From: Terracidiphilus sp.
GTDB taxonomy: Bacteria; Acidobacteriota; Terriglobia; Terriglobales; Acidobacteriaceae
Length of the DNA: 64,000 nucleotides
Direction: 5' to 3'
Assembly (NCBI GenBank): GCA_050011175.1
Contig: JBEKJR010000008.1
Span: 73,610 to 137,609 of the forward strand
How positions within the stretch are numbered: the stretch's first letter is position 1; every line of letters begins with the position of its first letter. This document shows, piece by piece, positions 34,556 through 57,965 of this stretch. The notes beneath the pieces are model-generated. The model did no database searches. It was given only the letters and a program-made list of their open reading frames with translations, and was not told the DNA's origin. The position numbers and the translations under genes are program-made.

Positions 34556-34990
34556 CTATCTCTGCCAGCCTGGCGTGGCCAACTGCTTCCTGCGTTCTCG
34601 AATCACTCGAGCTCGCTCCTTCTCGGGCAATGCCAGCACCGTCTTGGTTCGTTTGGGCAGCTTTGCGTAGATCAGCGCATGGGCGCGGGCCAGCTCCTCC
34701 TCAATCTCGCGCGGCTTGAGCGCATCCCACCGCTCCAGCGCGACCCAATAGGCTCTGGCCAGGTGCGGCGCGGGGTAGACTCCCTCGTTCTCCAGCAGCT
34801 CGTCGTAGCGCTCGGCCCCGCAGTGGAAGCTGAGGACGGGGGTCTCCATGCCGTCGGCGTTGGTCAAGGCAAACATCTTGCCGCCAATCGCCCGGTCGCC
34901 CACCCAGTAGACCAGAACCTGCCCCCAGTTCAGCGTCTCCGCCGTGTGCGGCAGCGCCAGGCAGATCTCGCGAATGCGCTCGTTGTCCAT
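34556..34990 (-). CDS. MmcQ/YjbR family protein
   Basis: IREICLALP, GGKMFAL and PAPHLARAYWV motifs. Confidence 0.9.
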   Translation of the reverse strand: MDNERIREICLALPHTAETLNWGQVLVYWVGDRAIGGKMFALTNADGMETPVLSFHCGAERYDELLENEGVYPAPHLARAYWVALERWDALKPREIEEELARAHALIYAKLPKRTKTVLALPEKERARVIRERRKQLATPGWQR

Positions 34991-35128
34991 GCGTTTCAGT
35001 GTAGGAGGAAAACCGGCGGCGAGGGAAGACAGAAGCCGTGCAAAACATGACACGTTAATGGAGGAGCGGCGTACACCCTCCCAATGCTTGATTGCGTCAA
35101 GGTTGAAACCAAATCACACTACAGCCTG

Positions 35129-37588
35129 CTAAGCGACTTTTGGTCGTAACGCCAGCAGGACGAAGCTCGTAGGGATCACCAGGAAATAGCATGCAGCAGA
35201 GATCAGCATGGTCACATTGATGCCAAACGACATGCTGAAGATCACGCCCAGTACAGAGGCCAGAACGCCGGTAGCGCCGTTGATACCCCAAAACCAAGGT
35301 GTTGGCTGAGTGTTGATCGCTGATACCAGCCGCATCCCCGTGGGGAAGGCGAAGCCGAGCAGAAAGCCCAGCGGCATGATTGCCGCCAGCGATATGACGA
35401 TGCGCACCAGCCGTTCCCGATTCGTCGTGACTTGAAAGATCGACGGCAAAACCCATTGCATGACCACGAGGTAGGCCCCGACTATACTGCCCCACACTAG
35501 CAGTTTTCCTCGCCTGTTCAGCTTGAGCCAATCCGAGGTGAGGCTGCCCAAACCGGAGGCCAGAATCAGGCTGAACAGGCACACGCCCAAGGAGTAGATA
35601 GGGTGGCCCAGATACACGCTGAAATACTGCAGCAGCGCAATCTCGGCTAACATGAAGCCCATCCCGATGAAAGAAAAATACAGACTGCCGGCTATAGCCA
35701 GGGACCGCGGACACTCGCGCGCCGCGCTGCGCAGAGGCACCAGGATTGTCAGGATCACCGCGACAATCGAGATGAGCAGAATCATCAGCAGCACGACGGA
35801 GGCAAGCAGATTGCCCACACTGGAGCCACTTGTAACCTGTCCGGTCACCCTGCGTTGCACGACGGTTATGAGGCTCGGGATATCGAAGATACGCAGTTGG
35901 TTGAAGAAAAACGGTCGGGAGTCGGTCGGCACGGAGAGATCTAGGTAGGTAGAACCCAGTACGCGATTCAAGGAGGCTAGGTCCTGACTCTCGATGATCT
36001 GGCGCAGTAGTTTGGAATCCGGAGGACGGTCCGGCGATAATAGTACGGTGAATCCGCCGTTTCGCACCGCGTCATGCAGTGCGCGCAACTGTTCCTCTGA
36101 AAAAGGCGTCTTGGACAGCACCATGGTGGCAATGTTGCCGGCGCTCGCGACGAACAGATGCGGGCGGGCGTCTTTGACGCCGATATCCAGCAAAGCGGCC
36201 GTCGCCAAACCGATCATGCGTCCAGTCTCGTTGACGTCGCTAGGGCTGTACCAACGGCTCACTGTGAAGATGCCATTGCCGTTGAGGGTCTTGAGAAAGG
36301 CCCGCCAACCCTCCAGAGTGTAGAGACCGTTCTCGCTCAGGCTAAACGCGCCTGCGCCGGTTGCCGCCCAGGTGTCGATCATGCTCATCTGCACAAGATC
36401 GAACTTTTCGTTCGTGGCTGCAAACCAGCTGCGAGCATCGTCCACGTGCAGCTTCAGATTCGGCAGAGCCGTCAGATTGGAAAAGTTCTTGTAAAAAGGG
36501 TTGCGCGTGTGCAGATCGATGAAGATAGGATTCAGCTCCACGCCGGTGATGTCTGTTACTCCAAACAGATGAGCCGACAAAACGTCGCGGCCGCCGCCGA
36601 CGCCGATCACCGCGGATTTGTGGATGCCAGGAAGGTGATAGGCCAGGTTGACCAGATCGTACTGGAGAAAGGCAATAGAGTTGCGCGTATCATCGTAGTG
36701 GAACATGAAGGTGCCGGCGTCGCCATCGATATTCATCAGAGACTCGGGAACGCGTATGTCCGCAGGTAGCTTGGGAGACGGGCCCCACATGGTAGGGGGT
36801 TCCGTGATGGGTCGCCCCGCTCTGATACGGGAATAGGAGTTCCACCTCTCGTAATGGCCATATCTGCCCGAACTATCGATAGAATTCTTGACCAGGATTG
36901 GCCTGAAACCTAAAGGCGATAGCGCATTGAATAGAGCTAACGCCAGCAATGCGACCACCACCGTCGCCGGCTGTCGCCACCTGGGCTTTGACTTGAGGCG
37001 CTGCCGGTCTTCGACACCGGCGCTGGCGGCAAAGGCCAGCGAGGACAGGCCGGAAATGGCGCCGGCCACGATGACTGCGGTCGGACCGTCCAGAACATTC
37101 AGCAAACCAAGTACCGCTATACATCCCAGTGCCGCGCCGAGAAGGTCCACGCCGTAAACCTGTCCAGTACGGAACGGACTGCGCGTCAGCGCCAGACTCA
37201 CCACCACCCCAGCGAATACATACGGAACGGCCATGACAGTCAACAGCAAAGCCCACGCGACCACCGTGGTGAGCGATAACGCAGGTGCAGTGACAAGGCA
37301 AAACTGCAACACGATGGATCCGGGCATGGCCAGCGAAGTAAGGAGCGCGAAGTTGGACAGGGTAACGGGCAGTTGTGCGGGCTGGAAGCGCTCACGCCAA
37401 AGATAGACCCAGACGGCGCCAACGGTCATGCCCAGCATGGCTACGCTGATCGCAAAGAAGGCCAGGTAATACCAGGCGATCACCGACATGATGCGGGTCT
37501 GCAGGATTTGAAATAGTAGCGAGGAGAAGGTGATTAGAAAAACACCGGAGAGAAACGGAGTCTTACGCAAGCCGCCCGTGTATTCCAT
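35129..37588 (-). CDS. Large multi-TM protein with a spermidine-synthase-like SAM-dependent domain
   Basis: N- and C-terminal TM bundles; central VIGVGGGRD, VELNP and DDARS motifs. Confidence 0.8.
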   Translation of the reverse strand: MEYTGGLRKTPFLSGVFLITFSSLLFQILQTRIMSVIAWYYLAFFAISVAMLGMTVGAVWVYLWRERFQPAQLPVTLSNFALLTSLAMPGSIVLQFCLVTAPALSLTTVVAWALLLTVMAVPYVFAGVVVSLALTRSPFRTGQVYGVDLLGAALGCIAVLGLLNVLDGPTAVIVAGAISGLSSLAFAASAGVEDRQRLKSKPRWRQPATVVVALLALALFNALSPLGFRPILVKNSIDSSGRYGHYERWNSYSRIRAGRPITEPPTMWGPSPKLPADIRVPESLMNIDGDAGTFMFHYDDTRNSIAFLQYDLVNLAYHLPGIHKSAVIGVGGGRDVLSAHLFGVTDITGVELNPIFIDLHTRNPFYKNFSNLTALPNLKLHVDDARSWFAATNEKFDLVQMSMIDTWAATGAGAFSLSENGLYTLEGWRAFLKTLNGNGIFTVSRWYSPSDVNETGRMIGLATAALLDIGVKDARPHLFVASAGNIATMVLSKTPFSEEQLRALHDAVRNGGFTVLLSPDRPPDSKLLRQIIESQDLASLNRVLGSTYLDLSVPTDSRPFFFNQLRIFDIPSLITVVQRRVTGQVTSGSSVGNLLASVVLLMILLISIVAVILTILVPLRSAARECPRSLAIAGSLYFSFIGMGFMLAEIALLQYFSVYLGHPIYSLGVCLFSLILASGLGSLTSDWLKLNRRGKLLVWGSIVGAYLVVMQWVLPSIFQVTTNRERLVRIVISLAAIMPLGFLLGFAFPTGMRLVSAINTQPTPWFWGINGATGVLASVLGVIFSMSFGINVTMLISAACYFLVIPTSFVLLALRPKVA

Positions 37589-37748
37589 TGAATAGGAACC
37601 TCCTCTGAACTCAGATGTGGGCTCATTATAGCCGTCTGACCGTGCCCATTCAGCGCGTATTTTCCTTCGAGAGAATGCTGAAGGCTCACCGTCGCCGGAA
37701 GAATCTCTTCCGCATCCACCCACTGGGCAGGGTTAATCGCCGGGCGCC

Positions 37749-37800
37749 CCAGAGCCTGCCCTGAGCTTGCCGAAGGGGATCTCGCTTCCAAGACCTGGAT
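37749..37800. repeat. REP-like element (family D)
   Basis: gagcctgccctgagcttgccgaaggg motif; single copy in the window. Confidence 0.4.
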
Positions 37801-37819
37801 TTTCATCTCGACTCAGAGG

Positions 37820-39364
37820 TCAGAACTTCTTTTCAAACGCCCTGAATCGCCGCTCCAGCTCCCACTGCGCTGCCGCTTTCTCGCTGCCGTCGAGAAACCT
37901 CTTGCATTCCATGGTGGGCTTGTCGGAGCCAGGCGTCTGCCCCATGCAGGCGGCGGCAGGAGTGGTGAAGGCATCCGGCACAGCCCAAAGGCTCGCGCCG
38001 GGCAGGAAGTTGTGCTCCATCCCGGTGCGGACTAACTGCTTTAGATCTTTATAGTTGAGGTGGTAATCCTGGGTGGCGCGCACATATTCATTGGTAATAT
38101 CAATGCGTCCGACGCCTTCATCGTCGGTGGAGAGCGCCACCGGAACGTGGGCGGCGCGGTAAATCGGAAACGGGTGCTCCGCGCCTTTCACGCCCAGAAT
38201 GCTTTCGTTGGAGCTGAGGTTGATCTCCACCATCACATGCTTTTGGGCCATCTCCTTCAGCAGGCCGCGGGCGTCCTCCTCGTACATCACGTCCACGCCG
38301 TGGCCGATGCGCTCGGCGTGTCCCAGTTCGACAGCCTGACGAATGTGGAAGCGCAGCCCCTCGGGCGGCACCAGGCCCAGCGTCAGTTCGCCGGCATGCA
38401 GGCTGATGTGGACTTTGGGATAGACCGAGTGCAGGTACTCCAGCATCTTCATCTGCAAGGTGTAATCGCGCATGGAGATGAAGCCATCCTCCGGCATGAC
38501 GAAGTTGATGCCCACAAAGCCGGGATCATGCGCGTCCAGGCTGGCCTGGACGGTCTCAAAGCCCAGCAGCGTCTGCGCAAAGACCTGTTCTGGCGGGAAC
38601 CCGCGCAGCACCTGGTAGATGTAGCGCACCTCGACCTGGCAGGCGGGCATTGCCTGCGGCGTTCCGCAATGTTCAATCTGGCGGCGGCTTGTCTCGGCAG
38701 CGCGCACATGCTCGCGGTCGGTTGTTACCTCGTCGCGCAGCCCGTGGTCGAGTAGCGTCTGCCGGTACTGCGCAAAATCCGGGCTCAATGGATTCTCATG
38801 TGCAATCTGCACGGCATGGCTAAAGGTGGGCGTCTCCATAAGCTCCACGTATTGTTGGTTTTGCGTGGCAGCGCGGCTGGCCACCTCGTCCACCCACTCG
38901 CCCATGTGCCGCTTGTTCAGCCCGCCAAAGCGGTCAAAGGTTGCAAAAAACTGGTCATGGGCGCTGAAGCCGGAACTGGGCACAAAGCTGCGTATGGAGA
39001 AGGCGTCCACCAGCCGGTCGTAGAGCTTCTGGTTGGCCGGAAGCTGCGCGGCCTCCACCAGCGGCGGCGCGCACGGAGGCTTGGTAAAGCTGAGAGCCGC
39101 CGGGTCCACGCACAGCCCATCCTCGCCGGCGTCGCGGATGAATGTTTCGGCGTAGACCGCTCCGGATAGGTGGATGTGCAGGTCCGCGCCCTTGGGAAAC
39201 AGGTCCAGAAAAGCGCGCAGCGCCAGCGGACCCTCGCGCAGGGCGGTCTGGTAGGCGCGGGCGGCGCGGGTCTCCCCAATCTGCGATTGAGCAGGCTTCT
39301 GTGCGTGGAGGGTGGCGGCATGGGCGAGGACAAAGCAGGCGAGAAGACAGACGAGTCGGCGCAT
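37820..39364 (-). CDS. Adenosine deaminase with signal peptide
   Basis: DLHIHLSG, HAGE, RIGHG and STDD motifs; N-terminal MRRLVCLLACFVLAHAATLHAQ. Confidence 0.9.
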   Translation of the reverse strand: MRRLVCLLACFVLAHAATLHAQKPAQSQIGETRAARAYQTALREGPLALRAFLDLFPKGADLHIHLSGAVYAETFIRDAGEDGLCVDPAALSFTKPPCAPPLVEAAQLPANQKLYDRLVDAFSIRSFVPSSGFSAHDQFFATFDRFGGLNKRHMGEWVDEVASRAATQNQQYVELMETPTFSHAVQIAHENPLSPDFAQYRQTLLDHGLRDEVTTDREHVRAAETSRRQIEHCGTPQAMPACQVEVRYIYQVLRGFPPEQVFAQTLLGFETVQASLDAHDPGFVGINFVMPEDGFISMRDYTLQMKMLEYLHSVYPKVHISLHAGELTLGLVPPEGLRFHIRQAVELGHAERIGHGVDVMYEEDARGLLKEMAQKHVMVEINLSSNESILGVKGAEHPFPIYRAAHVPVALSTDDEGVGRIDITNEYVRATQDYHLNYKDLKQLVRTGMEHNFLPGASLWAVPDAFTTPAAACMGQTPGSDKPTMECKRFLDGSEKAAAQWELERRFRAFEKKF

Positions 39365-39575
39365 ATTGCCTTCCAGTGTAGAACAGTCATAGCCTGCGCG
39401 GGCAGGGCTGAGCAATCGCCGCCAAGCTCGTTGAGACGCCTCTGGGTTCTCTGGCGCGGAAACCGGCAAGTTGGTATACTGACACAAGTTGTTGCAGCCA
39501 ACTGTATTTGGATTCGCCCACCAGCCCGGCTTGCCGGAATCCGCACAGGAAATTGCAACGCGATGTTTGCCCTGA

Positions 39576-39650
39576 GGCCAGATAGCTCAGTGGTAGAGCG
39601 CGGCCCTGAAAAGGCCGGCGTCGGCGGTTCAATCCCGTCTCTGGCCACCA
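39576..39650 (+). tRNA. tRNA-Phe(GAA)
   Basis: GGCCAGA/TCTGGCC acceptor stem, CTGAAAA anticodon loop, GGTTCAATCC T-loop, encoded CCA. Confidence 0.95.
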
Positions 39651-39686
39651 CTTTAAACGCGGATACTTAGAACCTGATATCGACAC

Positions 39687-39771
39687 GTCGGGATGGCGGA
39701 ACTGGCAAACGCAGCGGACTCAAAATCCGCCGGCCCTCGCGGCCATGGGGTCTCGCCCCCTCCCGGCACCA
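39687..39771 (+). tRNA. tRNA-Leu(CAA) with a shortened, non-canonical T-arm (possible pseudo-tRNA)
   Basis: Acceptor stem, D-arm, CTCAAAA loop, long variable arm and CCA are intact; the T-arm reads GGGG-TCTCG-CCCCC and lacks TTCG. Confidence 0.75.
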
Positions 39772-39911
39772 AACAAAACATTGATAATCAACAACTTAAT
39801 ACTTTTAACTGCCAATTCTTGTAGTGGTCAGATGAGTGAACTTGCGCCACAAATCAATGATCCCGGTATACTCTGTAGAGCGGAAATCAATCACACAAGA
39901 GGAGTCATGCC

Positions 39912-40436
39912 GTGAAAATGAGATTGGCAATGGCGTTGTTGTTCGTTTTATACGTGCCCAAGGTGTTCGCTCAAGATCATCCGAATCAACTCTTACTGGG
40001 TTATGACGGCGAGTGGACACATGTATCCCAGCAGTTGATTGCGCTGGCCGAGGCAACCCCAGCCGAGAAGTTTGCCTGGCGACCGGCTCCGGGAGTGCGC
40101 TCAACCAGCGAGGTCTATATGCACATCGTGACGGCTAACTTCATCTTGCTGAAAATCACTGGTTCTAAAATGCCGCCAGACCTCAAGGAGGACTCCGAAA
40201 GAACCGTTACATCCAAGGCAGAGGTAATCAGTTGGCTCAAGCGCTCCTTGGACGCTGTAAAGCAAGCACATTTGGCGGAGAGCCCGCAAGATCTTGTCCG
40301 CAAGGTTCGCTTTATGGGCCGGGATGCCACGGTAGACGATGTGTATCTCCGCATCATCCTTCATGCAAACGAGCACATGGGGCAATTGGTCGCATACGCG
40401 CGAATGACGGGCGTCGTGCCGCCTTGGTCAAAATGA
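39912..40436 (+). CDS. DinB-family protein with signal peptide
   Basis: FAWRPAPGVRSTSEVYMH and HANEHMGQLVAYARM motifs. Confidence 0.88.
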   Translation: MKMRLAMALLFVLYVPKVFAQDHPNQLLLGYDGEWTHVSQQLIALAEATPAEKFAWRPAPGVRSTSEVYMHIVTANFILLKITGSKMPPDLKEDSERTVTSKAEVISWLKRSLDAVKQAHLAESPQDLVRKVRFMGRDATVDDVYLRIILHANEHMGQLVAYARMTGVVPPWSK

Positions 40437-40591
40437 ATCACTATTTTAACGCCAATCCTATCGATTCGAGCGGGTGACGGACAATCCGGAAGTTGACCGC
40501 GTTGCCAACACCATATGCTGTAATATCGCCTTCGCAAAACTGCCAACCGGACCGGCTCGCATCACTATGATGGGAAGAGCGCACGCTCCCC

Positions 40592-42637
40592 ATGCCCTCC
40601 AACGAAAACCCAACCCGCGCCCTTCCCTCGCTGCACGAGTTCTTCTCCCCCGGCGGCATCCTGGCGGATTCTTCTCTGCCTTATGAGTACCGCACCGGCC
40701 AACTGCAGATGGCCCGGGCCGTCGAGCAGGCTCTCGAAGAGCGCCGCCACCTGATCGTCGAGGCCGGCACCGGAACCGGTAAAACCCTCGCCTACCTGCT
40801 GCCCGCCTTGCGCACAGGACAGCGCATCATCGTCTCCACCGGCACCAAGGCCCTGCAGGATCAACTCTACTTCCGCGACGTTCCCTTCCTTGAAACGCTG
40901 GTCGGCGAACTGCGCGTCTGCTACATGAAGGGCCGCGCCAACTACCTCTGCCGCCACAAGCTGGTCTCGCTGCGCAACCAGCCCATTCTTTCGGGATTGG
41001 AAGAGATCGATCAGTACCGCCAAATCTCCGAGTGGGAGAAAACCACGGAGACCGGCGACCGCGCCGAACTCTCCGGAATGCCCGAGTCCAGCGCCCTCTG
41101 GCAAAAGCTTGACGCGCGCACCGAGGCTTGCCTGGGCTCCTCCTGTCCCGACTACCACCACTGCTTCATCACCGAGATGCGCCGCAAAGCCCTCGAGTCG
41201 GACATCATCATCATCAACCACCACCTCTTCTTCGCTGACCTTGCCGTCAGGCGCGAGGCCGCCGGCGCGCCCGATGCCGGCATCCTTCCCGAGGCCGCGG
41301 CCGTGGTCTTCGATGAAGCCCACGAGCTGGAAGAAATTGCCTCGAATTACTTCGGCCTGTCGGTCAGCAATATTCGCTTTGAAGAACTGGCCCGCGACAC
41401 CGACGTCCTGCTGCGCGGCAAGCAGGGCGCGGAGAGACTGCCCGCCCTCACCCAGCAACTCCGCGACCGCGCCCGATTGTTTTTTGCCGGACTGCCCATG
41501 ACCGGCGACGGCCGCCAGCCTTTCACCGAGCGCGAGCAGTTTCTGGAAACCTCCGGCGACCTTTACCTGGCCGTGCGCACCACACTCCAACGCATGGAAG
41601 CGGAGATGGACGCTCTCGACGGCATTGACGAAGCGCCGGGACTCAAGAAGCGTGTCGCCCGCCTCCGCTCCGAGTTTGAATTTCTGCTCGAATCGAACGC
41701 GGCCAACATGGTCTATTGGATGGAGCGCCGCATCTTTGGAGGCTTGGACAGGTCTTCGTCCGGCGGCAAAGCTGGCGCCGCCGGCCGGGCCGCGGAACGG
41801 GCTTCCAGTCGCCACCAATCGCGCACCACCTACCTGCAAGCCACGCCCATCGATGTCTCCGAGCTTGTCCACGAGCTGGTCTTCGAGCAGATTCCCACCG
41901 TCGTGCTCACCTCGGCCACGCTCACCGTGCAGGGCGGCTTCGAGCATATCCGCAAGCGCCTGGGCCTCAGCGAAGCGCGCGAGCTGGTCGTGCCCTCTCA
42001 CTTCCGCTACGGCGAGCAGGCCCTTCTCTATCTGCCTCCGGAGATGCCTGATCCCCGCGACCCTGAATTTCCCGAGGCCGCCACTCGCTGCATCCAGCGC
42101 GTTCTCGAGATTACCCGTGGCCGCGCCTTCTGCCTCTTCACCAGCTACGCCCAGATGCACGTCGTCTACGAGCGCCTGATGCCGGTGCTCGACTTCCCCA
42201 TCCTGCTGCACGGCACGGCTCCGCGCAAAGCTCTCCTGGAGCAGTTCCGCGCGACGCCTAACGCCGTCCTCTTCGGCACGTCGAGCTTCTGGCAGGGCGT
42301 GGACGTGCAGGGCGAGGCGCTGAGTTGCGTCATCATCGACCGCCTGCCCTTCGCCGTTCCCAGCGACCCGGTCATCCAGGCGCGCATGAAGGCAATTGAA
42401 GAAGCCGGCGGCAATCCCTTCTCCGACTATCAGGTCCCCTCCGCTGTCCTCACCCTCAAGCAAGGCTTCGGCCGCCTCATCCGCTCGCTCGAAGACCGCG
42501 GCGTGCTGGTCCTCCTCGACCCCCGCGTCACCCGCCAACGATACGGCCAGACCTTCCTCACGAGCCTCCCGCCTTACCGCATGACGGCGTCGATTACGGA
42601 TGTGGAGGAGTTTTTTACAGACGAACACCGGCCTTAA
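40592..42637 (+). CDS. DinG/YoaA-family ATP-dependent helicase
   Basis: EAGTGTGKT, KGRANYLC, DEAH, TSATL, FWQGVDV and QGFGRLIR motifs. Confidence 0.95.
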   Translation: MPSNENPTRALPSLHEFFSPGGILADSSLPYEYRTGQLQMARAVEQALEERRHLIVEAGTGTGKTLAYLLPALRTGQRIIVSTGTKALQDQLYFRDVPFLETLVGELRVCYMKGRANYLCRHKLVSLRNQPILSGLEEIDQYRQISEWEKTTETGDRAELSGMPESSALWQKLDARTEACLGSSCPDYHHCFITEMRRKALESDIIIINHHLFFADLAVRREAAGAPDAGILPEAAAVVFDEAHELEEIASNYFGLSVSNIRFEELARDTDVLLRGKQGAERLPALTQQLRDRARLFFAGLPMTGDGRQPFTEREQFLETSGDLYLAVRTTLQRMEAEMDALDGIDEAPGLKKRVARLRSEFEFLLESNAANMVYWMERRIFGGLDRSSSGGKAGAAGRAAERASSRHQSRTTYLQATPIDVSELVHELVFEQIPTVVLTSATLTVQGGFEHIRKRLGLSEARELVVPSHFRYGEQALLYLPPEMPDPRDPEFPEAATRCIQRVLEITRGRAFCLFTSYAQMHVVYERLMPVLDFPILLHGTAPRKALLEQFRATPNAVLFGTSSFWQGVDVQGEALSCVIIDRLPFAVPSDPVIQARMKAIEEAGGNPFSDYQVPSAVLTLKQGFGRLIRSLEDRGVLVLLDPRVTRQRYGQTFLTSLPPYRMTASITDVEEFFTDEHRP

Positions 42638-42651
42638 TGCGGTATGATAAA

Positions 42652-42669
42652 AGCACCTAATTAGGTGCT
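42652..42669. promoter_or_regulatory. Perfect 18-bp palindrome, probable TA operator
   Basis: AGCACCTAATTAGGTGCT between a TATGAT -10-like box and the antitoxin RBS. Confidence 0.7.
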
Positions 42670-42685
42670 CGAAATGGAGGCGCAT

Positions 42686-42976
42686 ATGCTCAATATTGCT
42701 AAAGATATTCAATCGTTGACCACATTCCGCCGCTCTTCCCGCGACTTAATGAAGCAGCTCAGGAAGAGCAAGCGACCCATGGTGCTCACCGTGAACGGGA
42801 AGGCCGCAGCCGTTGTGCAGGACGCCGAGGCTTATCAGCGCCTGCTGGACATTGCCGCGCAAGCCGATGCCGAGGAAGGCATCCGTCAAGGCCTGGAAGA
42901 CGAAAAGAATGGAAGGCTCCGGCCAGCCAGAGAGTTTTTTGCCGAGTTTGAAGCCACCCATGGCCTATCTCGTTAA
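42686..42976 (+). CDS. Phd/YefM-family antitoxin
   Basis: DIQSLTTF, PMVLTVNGKAAAVVQD motifs. Confidence 0.9.
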   Translation: MLNIAKDIQSLTTFRRSSRDLMKQLRKSKRPMVLTVNGKAAAVVQDAEAYQRLLDIAAQADAEEGIRQGLEDEKNGRLRPAREFFAEFEATHGLSR

Positions 42977-43274
42977 ATTCACGCCGCGGGCGGAGCGCGA
43001 CTTTGCGATCCTGTTCGAGGATATCCACGCCGAGGATTCCGATGCGGCGCTGAAGTGGTACGAGGGACTCAAAGAAGCTGTTCTGGCCCTTGGAAGACTT
43101 CCCAACCGCTGCCCATTGACTCGCGAGAACCCCAACCTCAGGCACTTGCTGTACGGCCACAAGCCGCACGTCTATCGTGTGATCTACCGCGTTCTGGAAA
43201 AGCAGATGCAGGTTAATGTACTCTATATCCGCCACGGCGCCAGACGGGAATTTACTGCATCCGAACTTGAATGA
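42960..43274 (+). CDS. RelE/ParE-family toxin
   Basis: VKFTPRAERD, LPNRCP, LRHLLYG and YRVIYR motifs. Confidence 0.9.
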   Translation: MAYLVKFTPRAERDFAILFEDIHAEDSDAALKWYEGLKEAVLALGRLPNRCPLTRENPNLRHLLYGHKPHVYRVIYRVLEKQMQVNVLYIRHGARREFTASELE

Positions 43275-43433
43275 CCGATGCCGTCGGTGGCACTTCCCGC
43301 ATCGAATCAGCGGGGCAGTCAGTGGTTTGTGTGTCAGAACCGCGCGCTCAGGCTGAACGAAGCTGACCGCTCACGCCCTGTCAGCGGATTGATCGCGCTC
43401 GTTCGGCCGCCGCCTCGACCTCCACACCGGTTC

Positions 43434-43802
43434 TTACCGGCCAAAGCGCAGAGTTACATTGACGGTTGTCTCTTTGCCCGCAACTACGGCAATATCTCGA
43501 ATGATGACGATTTGAAAACCGGAGACAATGACAGTTGCGTCATAGCGGCCCGCGGGAAGGCCATCGAAGGCGAAGCGGCCCGCGTGGCTGGTGGTAACGG
43601 ATTTTATCAGTCCGGTGGATTGGCTTCTGACTTCGACCTTCGCCCCGGGCACAACCGCGCCGGTAGGGTCGCGCAACACTCCAGCGATACTGCCCGTGGC
43701 AACTGGGCTTGTGGTATCCGGGCTTTGTTGGACAATAATCGGATGCGCCGGTCCGCAGGTGCAGGCCGCGAGCAACAACGTCAGCAACAGCCGGGCTTTC
43801 AT
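43434..43802 (-). CDS. Stand-alone carboxypeptidase-regulatory-like domain, possibly a truncated remnant
   Basis: Signal peptide, GSIAGVLRDPTGAVVPGAKV...GRFAFDGLPAGRY; stops right after the domain. Confidence 0.7.
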   Translation of the reverse strand: MKARLLLTLLLAACTCGPAHPIIVQQSPDTTSPVATGSIAGVLRDPTGAVVPGAKVEVRSQSTGLIKSVTTSHAGRFAFDGLPAGRYDATVIVSGFQIVIIRDIAVVAGKETTVNVTLRFGR

Positions 43803-44102
43803 AACGACTCCTTTGCAGGCAGGAAGATTTTCCTCCGCATCGGCGCGGCAAGCGGCGCAATCAGCTTCCAGCCGAACCGTATTATCAGCGAGATGGCGGC
43901 GGCGCGGCGAATAATCATACCGACAGTATAGTTGGTGGCTGCTTCGCGCTTATGCAAGGTTGGTTGGTGGGGCGTAATGCCCGCCGAATGGTGATGCAGC
44001 GTGAATCTACCAGGGTTTTGGTCCTCAACCCCCTCTGGCCGGATGAGCGGTGCTGACACACTGCAAGGGGTACTGCGCCTTGACAAAGCCTTCGTTCTTA
44101 TC

Positions 44103-44171
44103 GAGGGGCACCCGGGTTTCGTGGAATCCCACCCTGGCCGCAAAATTGCAAGAAGCAAGTCCTTCGACTGC
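44103..44171. repeat. Partial nested family A::C repeat
   Basis: cccaccct...aagaagcaagtccttcgac, the same junction as in lpxK. Confidence 0.6.
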
Positions 44172-44308
44172 ATAGGCCACAAAAAGCGCGACCTATTTGC
44201 ACAAAAAGACATCCAAGATAGGGCGCTTAAAATGACTGAAAAAGGGCAGCTATGCAGCGCCGCGGATTGGTACAATTCGAGCGAGTCATTCCTTAGAAGG
44301 AGATTCTA

Positions 44309-46042
44309 ATGAACATGAATCTTATGAAAAAGCGTTGGGTAAAGGTCGTTGTCGCGGCCGTTGCCCTGATTATCGTCGTTGTTGTGCTGGTTCCGCTGTT
44401 TATCAACGTGGATGCATTCCGGCCCAAGGCGGAGGACGAAATCTCCAGCTCACTGGGACGCAACGTTACGTTGGGGCACCTGGACCTCTCCCTGATCACC
44501 GGCAGCCTGGTTGCGGATAACATCGTTGTGGCCGACGATCCGGCCTTTGCGAAAGAGCCGTTTCTCGAGGCCAAGGAACTGCGCATTGGCGTTTCACTGC
44601 TGAATTTAATCTTCCAGCAAAAGGTGCGGATCACGAGCTTCACCGTCGATTCCCCGTCGATTCATCTCATCCAGGCCAAGAACGGCACGTGGAACTTCTC
44701 CAGCCTGGGGAGCGGCGCGGAGAAACCCGCGGCAGAGAAAACTGCGGCCCAGAAACCTGCGAAGCAAAAAGCCGCGCCTCCGAATTCAGCGGCCCAGGAA
44801 GCCGCAGCCCAGCAGGGGAGCATGCTCTCAAGCGTGAGCATTGGCGAAATCAAGATCAAGAACGGGAGCGTCACGGTCGCCTCCAAACCCGAGGCCGGCA
44901 AGCCGTTCACGTGTACGGATGTCAACCTCTCCGTCCAACAGCTTTCGGCCACAACGCAGTTTCCCTTCAAACTTTCGCTCAAGGTGCCGGGCGGGGGATC
45001 GTTCCAACTTGACGGAACGGCGGGGCCGTTGGCGCAGAAGGACATGTCCCAAACACCCTTGCAGGCGACGCTACAGCTCAAGCATTTCAATCCGGTGGCG
45101 GCGGGCGCGGTTGAGCCAAGCCAGGGGGTCTCCATGATCGCCGACTTCGATGTGCAACTTAGCTCGGACGGAACCACCCTGACGAGCAAAGGAAAACTTG
45201 TAGCGAACAAGCTTCAGTTGGCGCGCGGCGGATCTCCTGATCCAAAGCCGGTGGATATCGACTACACGATCACCGACAACCTGGTGGAGCGCACGGGAAA
45301 GGTTCACGATATCGCGATCCACAGCGGGACGGCGGTGGCGCATTTGACGGGCAGCTTCCGGAGTACAGAGAAGGACACCGTGCTGGACATGCATTTTTCC
45401 GCGCCCGGCCTCTCTATCGACCAACTTGAGCCGTTGCTGCCGGCCGCCGGCATCACCATGCCCAAAGGGTCCAAACTGCAAGGGGGCACGCTGACCGCCA
45501 ATATCGCCATCACCGGCCCAGTGAACGCGCTGGTCATCAGCGGGCCTGTTTCGGTGGACAACACCGAACTGGCCGGCTATGACCTGGGCTCGAAGATTGA
45601 GGGCCTCAATCCTTTCAAATCCAAGACGGGCGGCACGGCAATCCAGAAGCTGAGCGCAGAATTGAAGTCATCTCCGCAGATGACGGAGATCAACAATATT
45701 GACGCCTCGGTTCCCTCGATTGGAACCGCTACCGGCAGCGGCACCATTTCTCCCGCTGACGCGCTGAACTTCAACCTGGTGGCGAAGTTCAATAATTCGT
45801 CGGCACTCGGCCTTGGCGCGATCGCCAACGGAGGCACAGGGGTGATGCACTTTGTCGGCAGTGGCGCGCAGAGCGCGTCGAGCAACGGCATCCCGCTGAC
45901 TATTACGGGGACCACGTCGGATCCAAAAATCCGCGCCGACGTCAAAGCCATGCTGAAAGGACAAGCGGGCGGACTGCTGGGGACATCCTCCGGTCAGAAA
46001 AGCAACCCAGCCGGAGCAGTGAAAGGGCTGTTCCACAAATAA
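44309..46042 (+). CDS. AsmA-family protein
   Basis: N-terminal TM, INVDAFRP...SSLGRNV, C-terminal IPLTITGTTSDP. Confidence 0.85.
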   Translation: MNMNLMKKRWVKVVVAAVALIIVVVVLVPLFINVDAFRPKAEDEISSSLGRNVTLGHLDLSLITGSLVADNIVVADDPAFAKEPFLEAKELRIGVSLLNLIFQQKVRITSFTVDSPSIHLIQAKNGTWNFSSLGSGAEKPAAEKTAAQKPAKQKAAPPNSAAQEAAAQQGSMLSSVSIGEIKIKNGSVTVASKPEAGKPFTCTDVNLSVQQLSATTQFPFKLSLKVPGGGSFQLDGTAGPLAQKDMSQTPLQATLQLKHFNPVAAGAVEPSQGVSMIADFDVQLSSDGTTLTSKGKLVANKLQLARGGSPDPKPVDIDYTITDNLVERTGKVHDIAIHSGTAVAHLTGSFRSTEKDTVLDMHFSAPGLSIDQLEPLLPAAGITMPKGSKLQGGTLTANIAITGPVNALVISGPVSVDNTELAGYDLGSKIEGLNPFKSKTGGTAIQKLSAELKSSPQMTEINNIDASVPSIGTATGSGTISPADALNFNLVAKFNNSSALGLGAIANGGTGVMHFVGSGAQSASSNGIPLTITGTTSDPKIRADVKAMLKGQAGGLLGTSSGQKSNPAGAVKGLFHK

Positions 46043-49824: not shown

Positions 49825-51759
49825 TTATTTTGCCGTATGATCCCTGGCGGCAGCGGCTGGTTTCCTGGCGGGGGATTTTCCGGCGTTCGCGGCCCCGGAT
49901 TTCTTGGCAGCGGGAGCGGTGGCGGGGTGTTTCAGGGGCGCTTTTTTCGGGGCCGGGGCGCTGTTATTCTTCGGCGCGGCCGGCGGCGCGGCTTTATTTA
50001 CAGCGCCTTTTGCAGGCGCGGACTGGCCTGTATTGGCGCCCGTATGAGCGCCGGCGCCGCGATGCGCGCGAGCGGCAGTGTGGTGAATAGTGGAGGGATC
50101 GGCCACATACAGCCGCTGACCGGGCTGAACTTTGGTCCCGGTGACCTTATTCCAGCGGCGCAACTGGTTCAGTGAGACGCCGAAACGGTCAGAGATGGTG
50201 ACCAGCGTATCGCCTTTGCGCGCCGTGTAGAGCCGCGGATGGGTCACGGGCTCGGCGACCGGCGGCGTAGGCACAAGCAGAGCCTCGAGGCCGTCGATGC
50301 CATCGCGCACGCGCAAATGATTGGCCGCGGCCAGCGCCACTTCCGTCACGCGATACTTAAGCGCCACCGACGCCAGCGTATCCTCAGGCGCAACGCGATG
50401 GTAGCGCCAGGCATTCCGCTTGCCTTCCGGAACCGTCGCAATGAGCTGCTCAAAGACCGCCGACGCACCGCCGGGCAGATGCAGGTCGAACGACGTGTCG
50501 GGCGGCGTTGTCATGCGCAACAGGCTGGGGTTCAGCGCCGTAAGCTCATCCACCGGCACGCCTACAATATCCGAGACCAGCCGCAGGTTTACCGGGTAGT
50601 TGATGGTCACCGTGTCGGTCAAAACGGGGGGATCAAGCGTGACATCGTCAAAGCCGTACCGCGCGGGATTGTTGGCGATTATGATGGCGGCCAGAATCTC
50701 GGGCACGTAATTTCTGGTTTCCCGGGGAAATTCGCCGCGCTTATAAAGCTCCCAGTAGTCGGCATAACCGGTCTTCTGCACCTCTCGCTGGATGTTGCCG
50801 GTGCCATGGTCGTAGGCGGCCATGGACAAATACCAGTCGCCGAGTTGTTCGTAGATGAACTTCATGTAGCGGGCGTAGGCGCGGGTGGATTTTTCCGGAT
50901 CGAAGCGCTCGTCCACATAAGCGTTGCGGACCAGCCCGTAGTTTCCGCGCGGCATGAACTGCCACATACCGCCGGCCCGGGAGCGGCGATTGACCGCGCG
51001 GGGCTGAAAGCCGGACTCGGCGACCGCCAGGTAGATAAGATCCTGGGGCACGCCCTCCTCGGCCAGGATGCGCTGGATCATGGCCTTATAGCGGCCGGCG
51101 CGCTCGAAGGAGTGGAGCAGAGTGTAGTGGCCGCGCTGCGTAGTGGAGAAAAAGCTTATGTAGGCGGCCACGTATTCGTTGACCACCAGCGGCAGGTCGG
51201 ATTTGGTGGTAGCCAGATCGGCCCTGGCTTTGGCCACGATGTTGGGGTCCACCGCAAAGGTCACGTCCTCGGCCACGTCGGCGGGCGTCTCCTCTTCCCT
51301 GGGGACAAATCCATTGCCCTGCTTGAGGGCCTCCATCTCCAGCGCATTGATCGCGTCTACGATGCGGTCGAACTCCTCCTGCAACTCGGGAGTGCTCTTG
51401 ATGTCGATGCCGCAGGTAAGCATCAGGTCCACGGCGCGATCGAACTGCTGCTTGGCCTCGCGCAATCGTCCCTTGCGATACTCAGCCTGGCCGCCGGCGT
51501 AGGCGTCCTCCACCTGCTGGATGAGCAAACGGACCTGCTGCTGCTGACGGGTAAGCGTGCGCGGCGCTGGAGCGGGAGCCGGGAGGGCTTGCGCGGGCGC
51601 AGCCGAGTTTGCGTTCGCTCCCAACGTGAGCGCGGGCGCCGTAGCTTGTGGCTGTGTGCCCCGCGGGGCGCCCGCGGGCGTAGTGGGGTAGCAGCCTGCC
51701 AGCGAGAGAGCCAGCACGGAACATCCGAAGGGTCGATACCACATTCTGCCAAGGCGCAT
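49825..51759 (-). CDS. mltD: Lytic transglycosylase with LysM domains (MltD-like)
   Basis: LAVAESGF, GMWQFM, AAYDHG and ETRNYVP motifs, LysM repeats, Ala/Pro/Lys tail. Confidence 0.88.
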   Translation of the reverse strand: MRLGRMWYRPFGCSVLALSLAGCYPTTPAGAPRGTQPQATAPALTLGANANSAAPAQALPAPAPAPRTLTRQQQQVRLLIQQVEDAYAGGQAEYRKGRLREAKQQFDRAVDLMLTCGIDIKSTPELQEEFDRIVDAINALEMEALKQGNGFVPREEETPADVAEDVTFAVDPNIVAKARADLATTKSDLPLVVNEYVAAYISFFSTTQRGHYTLLHSFERAGRYKAMIQRILAEEGVPQDLIYLAVAESGFQPRAVNRRSRAGGMWQFMPRGNYGLVRNAYVDERFDPEKSTRAYARYMKFIYEQLGDWYLSMAAYDHGTGNIQREVQKTGYADYWELYKRGEFPRETRNYVPEILAAIIIANNPARYGFDDVTLDPPVLTDTVTINYPVNLRLVSDIVGVPVDELTALNPSLLRMTTPPDTSFDLHLPGGASAVFEQLIATVPEGKRNAWRYHRVAPEDTLASVALKYRVTEVALAAANHLRVRDGIDGLEALLVPTPPVAEPVTHPRLYTARKGDTLVTISDRFGVSLNQLRRWNKVTGTKVQPGQRLYVADPSTIHHTAARAHRGAGAHTGANTGQSAPAKGAVNKAAPPAAPKNNSAPAPKKAPLKHPATAPAAKKSGAANAGKSPARKPAAAARDHTAK

Positions 51760-51850
51760 AAGGGAACCTGTTGCTCTATGCCGATGATAAGCTATGGCCT
51801 GAGGACATGCGCGCCGCAAGAGCGTGAAAAGCCTCTTTCACCAAGCCAAA

Positions 51851-53662
<1,812 letters not shown>

Positions 53663-53671
53663 GCGCCGATT

Positions 53672-53923
53672 TGTGATGCAATTCACAATTATTTAATCAG
53701 GATATGTGGATAACCCCGAAAAGCCCGCAAACATGCCCCTGCAACTAGCGTCTGCACCTAGAACAGGGCATTCTCCTGATGGTGATTGATAAATAAGGGG
53801 TTGCGTTGTGTATCAAAAGAATCAGTTCTTGGCAAGAGGATTTTTTTTGAATTAATTGATAGGGTTCGCGAAAGTGATCCACAGGTTTTTCCACAGCACA
53901 GTATGGGAAGAAGCGGTGGATAG
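53672..53923. promoter_or_regulatory. CRP/FNR-type palindrome plus a cluster of DnaA-box-like 9-mers in an AT-rich spacer
   Basis: TGTGA-N6-TCACA at 53672; TGTGGATAA at 53705, TGTGTATCA at 53807, TGATCCACA at 53875, TTTTCCACA at 53887. Confidence 0.6.
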
Positions 53924-53974
53924 TTCAAATGACGGACAGCCGTTGCGGAGGAGATGAAATGCGCCGCAGAACGG

Positions 53975-54001
53975 CAAGAGCCCCGTAATGCGGGGCTCTT
54001 G
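53975..54001. terminator. Hairpin terminator downstream of skp
   Basis: caagagccccg-taatg-cggggctcttg. Confidence 0.7.
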
Positions 54002-54028
54002 TGCCATTGTCTTTGGGCGGTGAAGCCT

Positions 54029-54649
54029 TTAGTTGGCGGGAGGCTTTGCGGTCGGCCGGGCCGGCGCTGCCGGCGGGGCCGGAGGAGCGGGCACGCCCGA
54101 CTTCAGGTTGTAGGCATCGATGATCTGCTTGGTGATGTTGGTGGACTCACTGGCGTAGAGCACAACGGGAGCCTGCTGCTGGCTGCCGGTTACGTCAAAG
54201 ACCACCGTGTAGCCCTGCTGCTGTGCGTAGTTGGCCAAAACATCGTAGACCTTGGCGGCCAGGCTGTTGTAAATCTCCGACATCTCCGCTTGGAAGTCGT
54301 TTTGGGCGTCCTCGGCGGCGCGATCCAACTGCTTCTTTTTGTCATCGATAGCCTTGGCGCGGCTGGCGCGTTCAGTATCGCTCAACTTGTCGGCCTGCGC
54401 CTGGAGCTGTTTGGTCAGGCCGTCGATCTCATCGCTCAGGGCCTTGAGCTGCTGGCGCTTGGGATCGTACTTCTTTTGCAGGTCAGAGAAGTTGCGCTGG
54501 CCCTCATTGGTTTGGGCAACGGCCACCTGAAAGGCGATCACAGCAATCTTTGCCGGGCCGGCAGGGGCAGCAGTGGCGGGAGTTTGGGCAGCGGCGCTCA
54601 GGACAAAACCAGAGGCCAGCGTAACGATAAGTGCAAGCGAACGCTTCAT
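54029..54649 (-). CDS. skp: OmpH/Skp periplasmic chaperone
   Basis: Signal peptide, KIAVI...coiled coil...YTVVFD...NITKQII; downstream of bamA. Confidence 0.92.
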   Translation of the reverse strand: MKRSLALIVTLASGFVLSAAAQTPATAAPAGPAKIAVIAFQVAVAQTNEGQRNFSDLQKKYDPKRQQLKALSDEIDGLTKQLQAQADKLSDTERASRAKAIDDKKKQLDRAAEDAQNDFQAEMSEIYNSLAAKVYDVLANYAQQQGYTVVFDVTGSQQQAPVVLYASESTNITKQIIDAYNLKSGVPAPPAPPAAPARPTAKPPAN

Positions 54650-54811
54650 GCGAGTGTAATGCTCCTTCGGAGTTCCTGTGAGTCTGCCTGCGTTTAGCGC
54701 GACAGCAGACTGGCGCCTCCTGAGCAACCTCCCGGTCTATTCAAAACCCCGCGCCGGAAGGAGCAGAGGCAGGAAAAGACATGGACGAAGACGTCAGCAG
54801 GAACTAGATGG

Positions 54812-54995: not shown

Positions 54996-57965
54996 CTAGA
55001 ATGTGGTGGAAATGGTCAGGCGGAAGGTTTTGCGCGGCTCCCGGAAGATGTCGCGCGCGCCGTAAGCAGAGATGACCTCGCCGTAGGTGTAGTCGCCTGC
55101 GCCACCCTGCGGGAACATGGAGCGAGTGATCAGTTCAGCCGAACAGCTCTGGCTCCTGCTTCCAATACCAAGGTCGCAGTAGGGCTTGTCATAGAGCCGC
55201 ATCGGGTTGAAGGCGTAGAAGAGGCGGAAGGGGGCGTTGATGACCGGCATGATGACGGAAAGCTCGACACCAGTGGACATGCGAGGAACGAAGTTGGTTC
55301 CGGCGAGGGGGTGGATATCGCGTTGGAAGCCGACCTGCGATCCGGGAATGCCGCCCTGGCAGGCGCCGTTATTCCACACCGGGCAACCGTAGAGGGGCGC
55401 GGTGAGCGAGGCAAAACCTTCCGGGCTCTGCTTTAACTGCCCCTTATTCAGGATCACATTGAGGCCGAAGTCATTAAAGAAGGAGAAGGTAACCGGTCCG
55501 GCGATGGGAATGCGGTACTCGACATTGGTTGTAAAGTTGGTGTCGCCGCCGATGGAGGCGATGCCGTAGACCGGAATCGGCACCTGGATGCACTGATTCA
55601 ACTGGGGATTGGTTGGGTCACGCGGCACGCAGGTTCCATCCGGATTGGTCAACTGCACATTAACGCGAGTGGGCACATATCCGTAGGGGGTTGCGGCACG
55701 AACGTCAAATCCGCGCAAGTCCATCTCGCCGCCGGCGTAGAAGCGGTTGTTGGGCGGGGCCACATCGCCGCCGTATCCCTGCACGTAGCCCAACTGCGCG
55801 CGCACGCCGAGCACGTTGCGCCCGGTGGACGAGGGTATCAGGTAGTGCATGGGCAGGTACTGTTTATAGGCCACCATGGGCGCGAAATAACGCACATTGC
55901 CCCAGATGCCGGAGGTCTGGAACACGGCAGTGTATTCCTTGCCGGTGCGCGGGCGCATGGGGTTGTTGACGGTGTTGTACATGTAGCTAATGGAGGCAAG
56001 GCTGTTGACGATGCCGGCCAGCGCATTGGACCCCTGAATGCCCGAGCGGAAGCTAATGGTCTGGAAATAGGTCTGTGAGGCGGTGCTGAATGCGGTAATC
56101 GTCGCCCTGCTCAACGAATAGGTAAATCCAACGCGCTGAAAGGCATGGCGCTTGAGCGGATAGCTGACCGAAAAGGATATGCCGGTGGCGGCCTGGTTGT
56201 AGTTCTGGATCATCGATTCCTGCGCCGAGGTCAGGTTAGCCGACTGGCCGGTGGTGGCCTGGTAGTTCTTTGCCGCGTTATAGTCCTGCTTGTTGTTGTA
56301 GATCTGAAAGCCTATGTTAATGGGGCGATTGCGGACATAGGGTTGGGTGAAGCCGAACATGAAGGTGCGGCTGACGTTGCCCAGATTGCCTTGCAGGCTA
56401 AGGGTTTCTCCCAGGCCCAGGAAGTTGTTGGTCTGGTAGTTGATGCCGATGAATGCGCCGGAGAGGCCGCTCAAGCCGCCGTTCATGCCGATGGAGTTCT
56501 TGCCTTTCTCCTTGACCTTGAGCAGCAGTTCCACGGTGCCGGCATCAGCATCCTGGTGGGCCTCCGAGTCCTGATCCACTTTGAGGGGTTCAAAGTACTC
56601 AAGCTGGTTGAGGCGGAGCAGGCTGTACTCCCAGAGTTGCGAGTTGTATACCTGGCCTTCTTCCAGCATCAGTTCGCGGCGAATGACCTTGTCGCGGGTG
56701 ATGCGGTTGCCCTGGAACTCGATGCGCGAGACGTAAAAGGGCTTGCCCTCGTCAATGTCGATGTTGAGCGAGACGGTCTTTTTCTGGTCGTCAAAGAGGG
56801 GTTTGGGGATGGCGCCGAAGTTGATATAGCCCAATTGCCCGTATGCCTTCTTGAGGTTCTCCAGCCCCTTGCCGATCAGCGTGGCGTTGAACCAGTCGCC
56901 GTCCTTAACGGCAAAAGTAGCGCGCAGGGCCCTGACGTTCGTCACCGCCTTGTTGCCGGTGAAGGTGATGGATCCGAGCCGGTAGCGCGCGCCCTCTTCA
57001 ATGGGCATGAGAATATCGATGCGCTTGCCCTTTCTGGGGCGGAAGGTGAACCAATTAAGCCCGCCTTCGTCACGAATCTGCGTCTTGGGCTCCTCGACAG
57101 CGGTGTTGTAATAGCCTTTGTCGCGGAAGGCCTGGCGTACCCGCTCGGTATCCTCCTCGAGCTTGGTGGCGTCGAAGGTCTGGGCGAACAAATTCTCGAA
57201 GATAATCGAATAGGGAATGCCGATGGGCTTCAGGTTCTTCATGGAGCGGCGCAAGGGCAGGTAGCCCAGGTGCTGGTTTCCCGTGAACTTGATCTGGCCC
57301 ACCTTGACCGTGGGGCCTTCCTTGATGTTGAAGTTGACCTGCACCGAAGCCGGAGGGATGGTCTTCACCTCGGTTTTGATGGTGGCAAACTGGTGGCCGT
57401 GCTCGGAGAGGATGTCCTTGAGGACGGTCTCGGCCCGCTTGATTTTGGTCGGATCGTACTGGCTCTCCACCGAGAGCGGAACCTTTTCCTTCTTAAAGCG
57501 GTCGAGCACGTCCGACACGGAAACGGCGTTGAGGCCTTTGTAGTTAATCTCACGGATGGTGGGCCTCTCCACGACGAAGATATTCAGGATGATGCCCTTT
57601 TCCGAGTCCTCTCGCTCAATGCGCACATTGTCGAAGTACGACGTGTTCCACAGCGAGTTGAAGTCGCGCTCAATGGAGATTGGGTCGTAGGCGTCGCCAG
57701 GGTGGGTAAAGAGCCGGGCCAGGATGGTCTCTTTGGGGATGCGCCGGTTGCCGATGACGCGAATGGATTCAATGGTCTGCGGCTGCTGGGCCAGGGCTGC
57801 GGCGGCGGAGAGCGCCAGCGCGAGCACAAGCATCGTATACGCCAGACGGCTTGTGATCCGCAGGGCGCGGGAGATGGAAATGTGCTCGATCTTCACCGGG
57901 CGAGAGCCCTGTGCTGAGCACACATACTGGTGCGGTCCATAGTTCGCCATCACGTTCGGCTTCAC
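54996..57965 (-). CDS. bamA: Outer membrane assembly factor
   Basis: POTRA repeats (GNRRI, GNKAV, GNRITRDKVIRRE), FYAGGEMDLRGF and C-terminal Phe; exact start uncertain. Confidence 0.96.
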   Translation of the reverse strand: MKPNVMANYGPHQYVCSAQGSRPVKIEHISISRALRITSRLAYTMLVLALALSAAAALAQQPQTIESIRVIGNRRIPKETILARLFTHPGDAYDPISIERDFNSLWNTSYFDNVRIEREDSEKGIILNIFVVERPTIREINYKGLNAVSVSDVLDRFKKEKVPLSVESQYDPTKIKRAETVLKDILSEHGHQFATIKTEVKTIPPASVQVNFNIKEGPTVKVGQIKFTGNQHLGYLPLRRSMKNLKPIGIPYSIIFENLFAQTFDATKLEEDTERVRQAFRDKGYYNTAVEEPKTQIRDEGGLNWFTFRPRKGKRIDILMPIEEGARYRLGSITFTGNKAVTNVRALRATFAVKDGDWFNATLIGKGLENLKKAYGQLGYINFGAIPKPLFDDQKKTVSLNIDIDEGKPFYVSRIEFQGNRITRDKVIRRELMLEEGQVYNSQLWEYSLLRLNQLEYFEPLKVDQDSEAHQDADAGTVELLLKVKEKGKNSIGMNGGLSGLSGAFIGINYQTNNFLGLGETLSLQGNLGNVSRTFMFGFTQPYVRNRPINIGFQIYNNKQDYNAAKNYQATTGQSANLTSAQESMIQNYNQAATGISFSVSYPLKRHAFQRVGFTYSLSRATITAFSTASQTYFQTISFRSGIQGSNALAGIVNSLASISYMYNTVNNPMRPRTGKEYTAVFQTSGIWGNVRYFAPMVAYKQYLPMHYLIPSSTGRNVLGVRAQLGYVQGYGGDVAPPNNRFYAGGEMDLRGFDVRAATPYGYVPTRVNVQLTNPDGTCVPRDPTNPQLNQCIQVPIPVYGIASIGGDTNFTTNVEYRIPIAGPVTFSFFNDFGLNVILNKGQLKQSPEGFASLTAPLYGCPVWNNGACQGGIPGSQVGFQRDIHPLAGTNFVPRMSTGVELSVIMPVINAPFRLFYAFNPMRLYDKPYCDLGIGSRSQSCSAELITRSMFPQGGAGDYTYGEVISAYGARDIFREPRKTFRLTISTTF

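Follow-up and report, generated by a model that had tools for sequence, protein, structure and literature searches.

The spacer between lepA and skp in a Terracidiphilus genome holds a conserved arrangement of three predicted DnaA boxes. We lean towards reading it as an origin-like DnaA-assembly site that has no DNA-unwinding element and acts on the availability or activity of DnaA, in the way of datA, DARS or the DnaA-box clusters of Bacillus subtilis. Judged from the sequence, DnaA very probably binds the three boxes; a regulatory role for the element is a conjecture, and one that we infer weakly. Non-origin DnaA control loci are understood in few model bacteria, namely datA and DARS in Escherichia coli and the DnaA-box clusters in B. 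subtilis, and the literature searched yielded nothing on replication control in Acidobacteriota. The element is a precise candidate for such a locus, with three boxes in a fixed geometry and at a known anchor in the genome.

Three predicted DnaA boxes between lepA and skp

The element lies in a window of 64 kb, by which we mean the whole stretch of DNA analysed. On its left is lepA (EF4; 51824–53662, plus strand; Pfam GTP_EFTU and LepA_C), whose TAG stop ends at 53662, and on its right is skp (OmpH family; 54029–54727, minus strand; Pfam OmpH), with bamA (54996–57965, minus strand; Pfam POTRA and Omp85) behind it. The two flanking genes converge on a spacer of 366 bp. The first-pass annotation had both genes ending here, which gene calls and Pfam confirmed, and a re-scan of the sequence recovered all the motifs it had listed, each in its place.

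Box 1 (53705–53713) is inverted: TGTGGATAA on the plus strand is a perfect TTATCCACA on the minus strand. It is followed 170 bp on by a pair of boxes in the same orientation on the plus strand, box 2 (53875–53883; TGATCCACA, with the consensus TAATCCACA across relatives) and, 3 bp past it, box 3 (53887–53895; TTTTCCACA), and the layout spans 191 bp overall. Perfect matches to TTWTNCACA occur twice in the 64 kb, both inside the spacer, and 3 of the 11 window matches to TTATCCACA at no more than one mismatch fall in the spacer. When first-order Markov samples were drawn with the spacer's own composition, three such boxes were reached in 3 of 20,000 trials. The earlier description of the spacer as a DnaA-box cluster is thus strongly supported, since the three boxes match both the universal consensus and the boxes of dnaN-linked modules in relatives (see below) and the gap within the pair is 3 bp. 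The accompanying list of boxes held up in part. The sites at 53705, 53875 and 53887 are conserved; at 53807 only a TA.CA part is, and the weak box GGTGGATAG (53915–53923, minus strand) is kept only by the closest relatives and is probably incidental.

Conservation of the boxes and their geometry

Scanning reference genomes with LepA yielded ten Terriglobales loci, from Terracidiphilus (91-92% LepA identity), other Acidobacteriaceae and one Granulicella metagenome-assembled genome (MAG). A Skp-based scan of metagenomes added eighty further loci, most with the same convergence of skp and lepA; having been collected via Skp, this set is biased toward the lepA-skp arrangement. The name Terracidiphilus leads in the NCBI taxonomy to the genus Occallatibacter (Acidobacteriaceae, Terriglobales), and the closest loci are titled Terracidiphilus. 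In nearly all related loci, lepA adjoins the element.

Across about 60 distinct syntenic spacers from Terracidiphilus-like Acidobacteriaceae, boxes 1, 2 and 3 are nearly invariant. Box 1 reads TGTGGA[T/A]A and lies 40-54 nt past the lepA stop in most distinct relatives; independently of any pattern search, the alignment columns over its TGTGGA show at least 90% identity (62 sequences). The pair has the consensus TAATCCACA-N3-TTTTCCACAG in relatives. Of 62 distinct sequences, 60 have a 3-bp gap within the pair, and 54 of 56 place box 2 at 169-173 bp from box 1. Conservation of the spacer in relatives was what the first-pass annotation had suggested looking at, and the boxes, the gap and the spacing are what these roughly 60 spacers have kept. 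Much of the sequence between the boxes drifts, and in close relatives one-base indels are offset by a second indel that restores the length. Variation within the boxes falls at positions 1, 3 and 5, with position 4 and CACA fixed; the degenerate consensus TTWTNCACA leaves positions 3 and 5 free.

In four loci (L003, L004, which is the Granulicella MAG, L007 and L010) the interior cannot be aligned, and an inverted box is again followed by a pair about 175 bp on, to within a few bp. Box 1 of L007 and L010 is TGTGCAAAT, which has one mismatch to TTWTNCACA. The conserved layout spans relatives in which identity to the window's proteins is down to 79% for LepA and about 50% for Skp. L006, L008 and L009 showed no copy of the element up to 4 kb from lepA, and none was seen in the nine further Acidobacteriota loci inspected (L011-L019). 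Searched for with an nhmmer profile, the element matched 74 loci, once in each, and in 839 kb of related sequence the generic double-box pattern was almost exclusive to the element. A mobile element or MITE with inverted ends was rejected, as there is one copy per locus and it is always syntenic.

Interior motifs and the possibility of a transcription element

Besides the boxes, the alignment of 62 sequences shows a block TCAC..N..TT.AT just left of box 1 (53683–53697; columns of at least 90% identity). Between the boxes there are three more: (i) TTGATAAATAAGGGGTTG (53786–53803; consensus TTGATAAATAAGGAGTT), which is unique in the window, reaches at least 80-90% identity within the lepA-skp group and is not clearly retained in L003, L004, L007 and L010; (ii) TA.CA(G)AA (53811–53818), overlapping the formerly annotated TGTGTATCA (53807), whose TGTG part varies; and (iii) TTGGCAAGAGGA (53829–53840), which has TTGACA in some relatives. 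These interior blocks (53786–53840) are conserved only within the lepA-skp group.

The spacer has further structures. A GC-rich hairpin, CAAGAGCCCCG-TAATG-CGGGGCTCTTG (53975–54001), is conserved in near relatives, with a folding energy of -25.4 kcal/mol (z -5.7) on one strand and -26.5 kcal/mol (z -6.6) on the other; it is probably a bidirectional terminator for skp and any lepA read-through. This sole strong hairpin lies beyond the element, and after the lepA stop there is only a weak one. The palindrome TGTGATGCAATTCACA (53672–53687), a perfect TGTGA-N6-TCACA with CRP/FNR-type half-sites, occurs once in the window against 0.05 expected, and as RNA it forms a weak hairpin followed by UUAUUUAAU (-5.8 kcal/mol, z -1.7). 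It is perfect in 18 of 59 distinct spacers, all from one short-form subgroup that includes the window, and near-perfect in 3; at least 13 other relatives carry a wider-spaced GTGAC..GTCAC-like form with half-sites about ten bp further apart. The perfect CRP-type site of the first-pass annotation is therefore real and unique in the window, with its perfection confined to those 18 spacers. By its sequence, the palindrome may be a CRP/FNR-family operator or the stem of a weak lepA terminator.

The spacer could instead be a DnaA-controlled transcription element, where bound DnaA would drive or repress a small transcript so far hidden, or would keep the convergent lepA and skp units apart as a roadblock or terminator. 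We consider this alternative unlikely. The conserved interior blocks call for an explanation, which it would offer, and it fits with the lack of a strong terminator between lepA and the element, the one strong hairpin being at 53975–54001. Against it, the deep core of the element retains the boxes and their spacing only, and searches for a transcript, a reading frame or a promoter gave the following results.

A known RNA family was rejected because Rfam at gathering thresholds gave no match in the spacer; a search of 53550–54100 at a permissive E-value returned only sub-threshold terminator-like matches. A structured RNA was likewise rejected: RNAalifold on 61 spacers gave a consensus of -4.7 kcal/mol that consists only of pairs between the invariant boxes 1 and 3 and shows no covariation, and in L007, L010 and L114 this pairing is broken (G to C) without compensation. 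Among sliding sub-windows, none was structured on the plus strand and one was marginal on the minus strand (-8.6 kcal/mol). Hairpin potential did not rise above shuffled controls, either for a candidate lepA terminator between box 1 and the TTGATAAAT block (mean z -0.46 against mononucleotide shuffles) or for lineage-specific palindromes between TTGGCAAGAGGA and box 2 that looked compensatory by eye (mean z -0.28 against dinucleotide shuffles). A small ORF after an AAGGAG-like block has no conserved start codon, and its frame is broken by the one-base indels that compensate in length. Scanning revealed no sigma-70-like promoter on either strand, with no conserved -10 element 16-18 nt from the TTGGCA/TTGACA at 53829, and a sigma-54 site was dismissed for want of the -12 GC. 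With no RNA, ORF or promoter signal, what is conserved is read at the DNA level.

Evidence on a chromosomal origin at the spacer

The first-pass annotation had also likened the spacer to an oriC, while noting against it the convergent flanks, the lack of a clear skew switch and the lack of a DnaA-trio tract. Those reservations were correct, and an oriC at this place in the genome found no support. That the spacer is this genome's oriC, or half of a split or bipartite origin, is very unlikely. Its layout does resemble the DnaA-assembly region of an origin, and a box cluster is the one origin feature that it has; an unwinding module, a skew switch and an origin-gene neighbourhood with divergent flanks are absent, the neighbourhood being found only in L004.

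Left of the spacer, over 53 kb, third-codon G/C skew in plus-strand terms is +0.16, and right of it, over 10 kb, +0.19; it is positive in genes of both orientations, and the raw skew profile of the window shows no switch at the spacer. In L173, L174 and L175, which share the arrangement and have 10-kb flanks, the raw skew has the same sign on both sides, and per-gene third-codon skew is mostly positive on both sides in L173 and L175. A switch is therefore missing in four of four genomes, as judged on flanks of 10-53 kb. The flanking genes converge, and the 64 kb of the window hold no homologue of dnaA, dnaN or dnaB, no other origin-proximal genes and no origin-type module.

The sequences 3' of the pair and 5' of box 1 contain neither DnaA-trios nor an AT-rich tract; the DNA 3' of the pair is variable and of ordinary GC content. 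The AT-rich core proposed earlier did not stand: the run gattttttttgaattaattgata (53839–53861) is on the 5' side of the pair, which is the wrong one, its sequence varies among relatives, it shows no surplus of hairpin potential, and mean AT in the region is 0.60-0.66 across relatives.

Relatives carry a complete origin-type module elsewhere. We fetched 13 dnaN loci from Acidobacteriaceae with the DnaN of L004 as query, and all 13 have a strongly conserved block upstream of dnaN. It consists, in order, of an inverted box CCTGTGAAGAAG; 130-134 bp of intervening DNA; TAATCCACA abutting TTTCCAGCG; ACAAC; GGCTGCTACTACT; an AT-rich tract; and a box GCGCTTTCCACAAAG. The GGCTGCTACTACT part is a run of CTG/CTA repeats, the complement of 3'-GAT-5' DnaA-trios. 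The module lies at 3454–3730 in L004, 9489–9900 in L164 and 9520–9850 in L162, and just upstream of dnaN (10001) in L161, L167, L169, L170, L172, L176 and L177. It matches the basal unwinding system of Pelliciari et al., in which two boxes no more than 3 bp apart come before a short spacer, three or more trios and then an AT-rich tract (PMC8287927); in the supplement of that paper, the unwinding element predicted for Granulicella tundricola within its DoriC oriC (2737–2780) is the same module.

The 9-mer TAATCCACA is common to the lead box of the lepA element and the head of the dnaN module. Since unwinding is placed 3' of 5'-TAATCCACA-3' in the dnaN modules, these provide a within-clade control for the orientation of the lepA element. 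On the side where unwinding would then be expected, the element has ordinary, unconserved sequence, and none of its boxes has trios or a conserved AT-rich tract on the correct side. Without an unwinding module or a polarity switch, the chromosome would not start replicating at the element.

The skew at the dnaN modules leaves the true origin of these genomes uncertain, which counts in favour of an origin at the spacer. In none of the 13 dnaN loci (L004, L161-L172, L176, L177) is dnaN beside dnaA; its upstream neighbours are NmrA-like/lpdA genes, yidC (with rnpA-yidD) or lepA, and in several loci parAB, gidB, HU or mnmE is found within 10 kb. Only L161 and L170 show a clear skew switch at the module. 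Skew is negative on both sides in L162, L164, L167 and L176 and positive on both sides in L172. Either the origin lies elsewhere in such genomes or something unusual shapes their skew, and skew is an imperfect guide in this clade. We leave a small residual probability on an origin at the spacer because the origin of these genomes is not securely located. The dnaN-linked module is nonetheless a lineage-specific origin-type module that can be used for origin annotation in Terriglobales genomes.

In one well-sampled arrangement (lpdA/NmrA, module, dnaN, mutS2, hemB and further on parBA), nearly all genes on either side of the module have a third-codon skew of -0.1 to -0.7.

Rearrangement of the right flank

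In L004 the order is lepA, element, about 280 bp, dnaN module and dnaN. The element is thus physically part of the origin region there and, given its distance of about 280 bp from the dnaN module, could be an origin accessory in that genome. In L007 (7520–7710) and L010 (6434–6626) the neighbour of the box layout is dnaB instead of skp, with the 3' end of dnaB about 70-100 bp away; both the dnaN module in L004 and dnaB as right-hand neighbour in these two loci are points for the oriC alternative. Extra genes, including one with a TonB_C domain, are inserted between lepA and the element in L007, and in L010 the gap between the two is 0.6 kb. The right flank is a rearrangement breakpoint, with lepA constant on the left. 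One history consistent with this would be an inversion that separated the element from the dnaN module by breaking the DNA between them, which would have left lepA co-oriented with the replication fork, as the skew of the window shows. That one lineage has the element beside the dnaN module suggests how control loci may evolve out of parts of an origin.

Last, it is highly improbable that some protein other than DnaA binds the 9-mers, or that they are a functionless, decaying relic of an old origin: a rearrangement that split an origin, as L004 may suggest from its gene order, could leave such a relic, but the motif is the DnaA consensus and recurs in the boxes of related dnaN modules, and in a relic the three boxes, the gap of 3 bp and the fixed spacing of 170 bp would not have persisted across genomes with LepA identity down to 79% and Skp identity of about 50%.

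Comparison with known DnaA-binding systems

The outer boxes R1 and R4 of the E. coli oriC face inward and are about 180 bp apart. The element resembles this assembly region, and also the dnaN module, in having inward-facing outer boxes over a similar span (170-182 bp in the element, 130-134 bp in the dnaN module). The element has no unwinding module of trios and AT-rich tract and no skew switch.

Boxes 2 and 3, in the window and in 60 of 62 relatives, form a double DnaA box in the sense of Stringer et al. 2024 (same orientation, 2-3 bp apart). By ChIP-seq in E. coli, DnaA binds box pairs 2-3 bp apart in vivo, and altered spacing abolishes binding (PMC11317965).

The core of DARS1 and DARS2 has three boxes, one opposed to two of the same orientation, with boxes I and II 5 bp apart (PMC6868365). 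The element shares the number of boxes and the opposition of one to two, and the same-orientation pair is present. What is absent is the opposed arrangement at about 5 bp: in DARS the distance of 5 bp allows a head-to-head dimer on the opposed boxes, whereas here 161 bp separate the opposed box from the pair, so the DARS mechanism cannot apply without DNA looping.

datA is a non-origin DnaA-box cluster that stimulates the hydrolysis of DnaA-ATP and is reached by read-through from glyVXY (PMC10950094). In both cases non-coding, non-origin boxes are found directly downstream of a translation-related unit, lepA here and glyVXY there (PMC10950094). We saw no sequence homology of the element to datA, and none was expected. 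Unlike datA, which needs an IHF site, the element has none that is recognisable, the conserved interior blocks containing no full match to the IHF consensus WATCARNNNNTTR by eye; its three conserved boxes in a 191-bp span also make a different layout. As its geometry is not that of DARS and it has no recognisable IHF site, the element falls into the general class of non-origin DnaA-box clusters and into neither E. coli family.

In B. subtilis, intergenic DnaA-box clusters outside oriC restrain initiation through interaction with DnaA (PMC3245932). The element is likened to them by place and proposed function, both being intergenic, non-origin DnaA boxes, and not by size or layout; it has only three boxes, in fixed spacing and conserved across genera. 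A further parallel is the oriCII of Pseudomonas aeruginosa, a second, origin-named DnaA-box cluster where, as far as the account in PMC13438810 indicates, bound DnaA regulates transcription. By the same account oriCII lies upstream of gidA and regulates that promoter; in the window, by contrast, both flanking genes end at the element.

Proposed mode of action

As the alternative to oriC, the first-pass annotation had named a datA-like or titration locus. Given the missing unwinding module and switch, this is the better half of its interpretation, and one that we still infer. In the favoured reading, an assembly site acting on DnaA, DnaA would bind the double box and box 1 and assemble a defined complex. 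The fixed length of the spacer between them implies that both ends have to stay in register, in a complex that is probably bent or looped and is possibly assisted by an architectural protein on the conserved blocks at 53786–53840. With no DNA-unwinding element, such a complex could only sequester DnaA or alter its nucleotide state, as datA, DARS and the B. subtilis clusters do. It would thereby lower or reset the level of free active DnaA, through either (i) titration or (ii) conversion of the bound nucleotide of the datA or DARS type. Three conserved boxes are a small sink, which counts against pure titration. In the absence of a strong terminator between lepA and the element, lepA read-through may pass through; it may then modulate occupancy, as glyVXY read-through does at datA.

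A bolder version of this proposal is possible but doubtful. Here the element would be a dedicated datA-/DARS-like locus of the Acidobacteriaceae, derived from the DnaA-assembly half of an origin and placed at the 3' end of lepA, where lepA read-through would couple translation capacity to the pool of active DnaA. If so, the L004 arrangement in Granulicella would hint at how control loci arise from origins by rearrangement.

Other features of the locus and the window

Some relatives have two tandem OmpH/skp genes between bamA and the element, where the window has one. In L174 these are at 9081–9692 and 10001–10657, and second Skp-like matches were also seen in L128, L131, L142 and L155. Long ORFs run on the plus strand opposite skp (53954–54697) and opposite a 664-aa gene upstream of lepA (50239–51870) that is an SLT/LysM protein in relatives. 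Both are shadow ORFs typical of GC-rich DNA; the one of the two that was tested against Pfam, 50239–51870, had no match.

The sole Rfam and ARAGORN matches in the window are tRNA-Phe(GAA) and tRNA-Leu(CAA), side by side at 39576–39770. From 33700 to 46000 third-codon G/C skew is near zero (-0.13 to +0.10), and in the 33 kb preceding 33700 most genes have clearly positive values (up to +0.56). The segment from 33700 to 46000 may have been acquired more recently or inverted.
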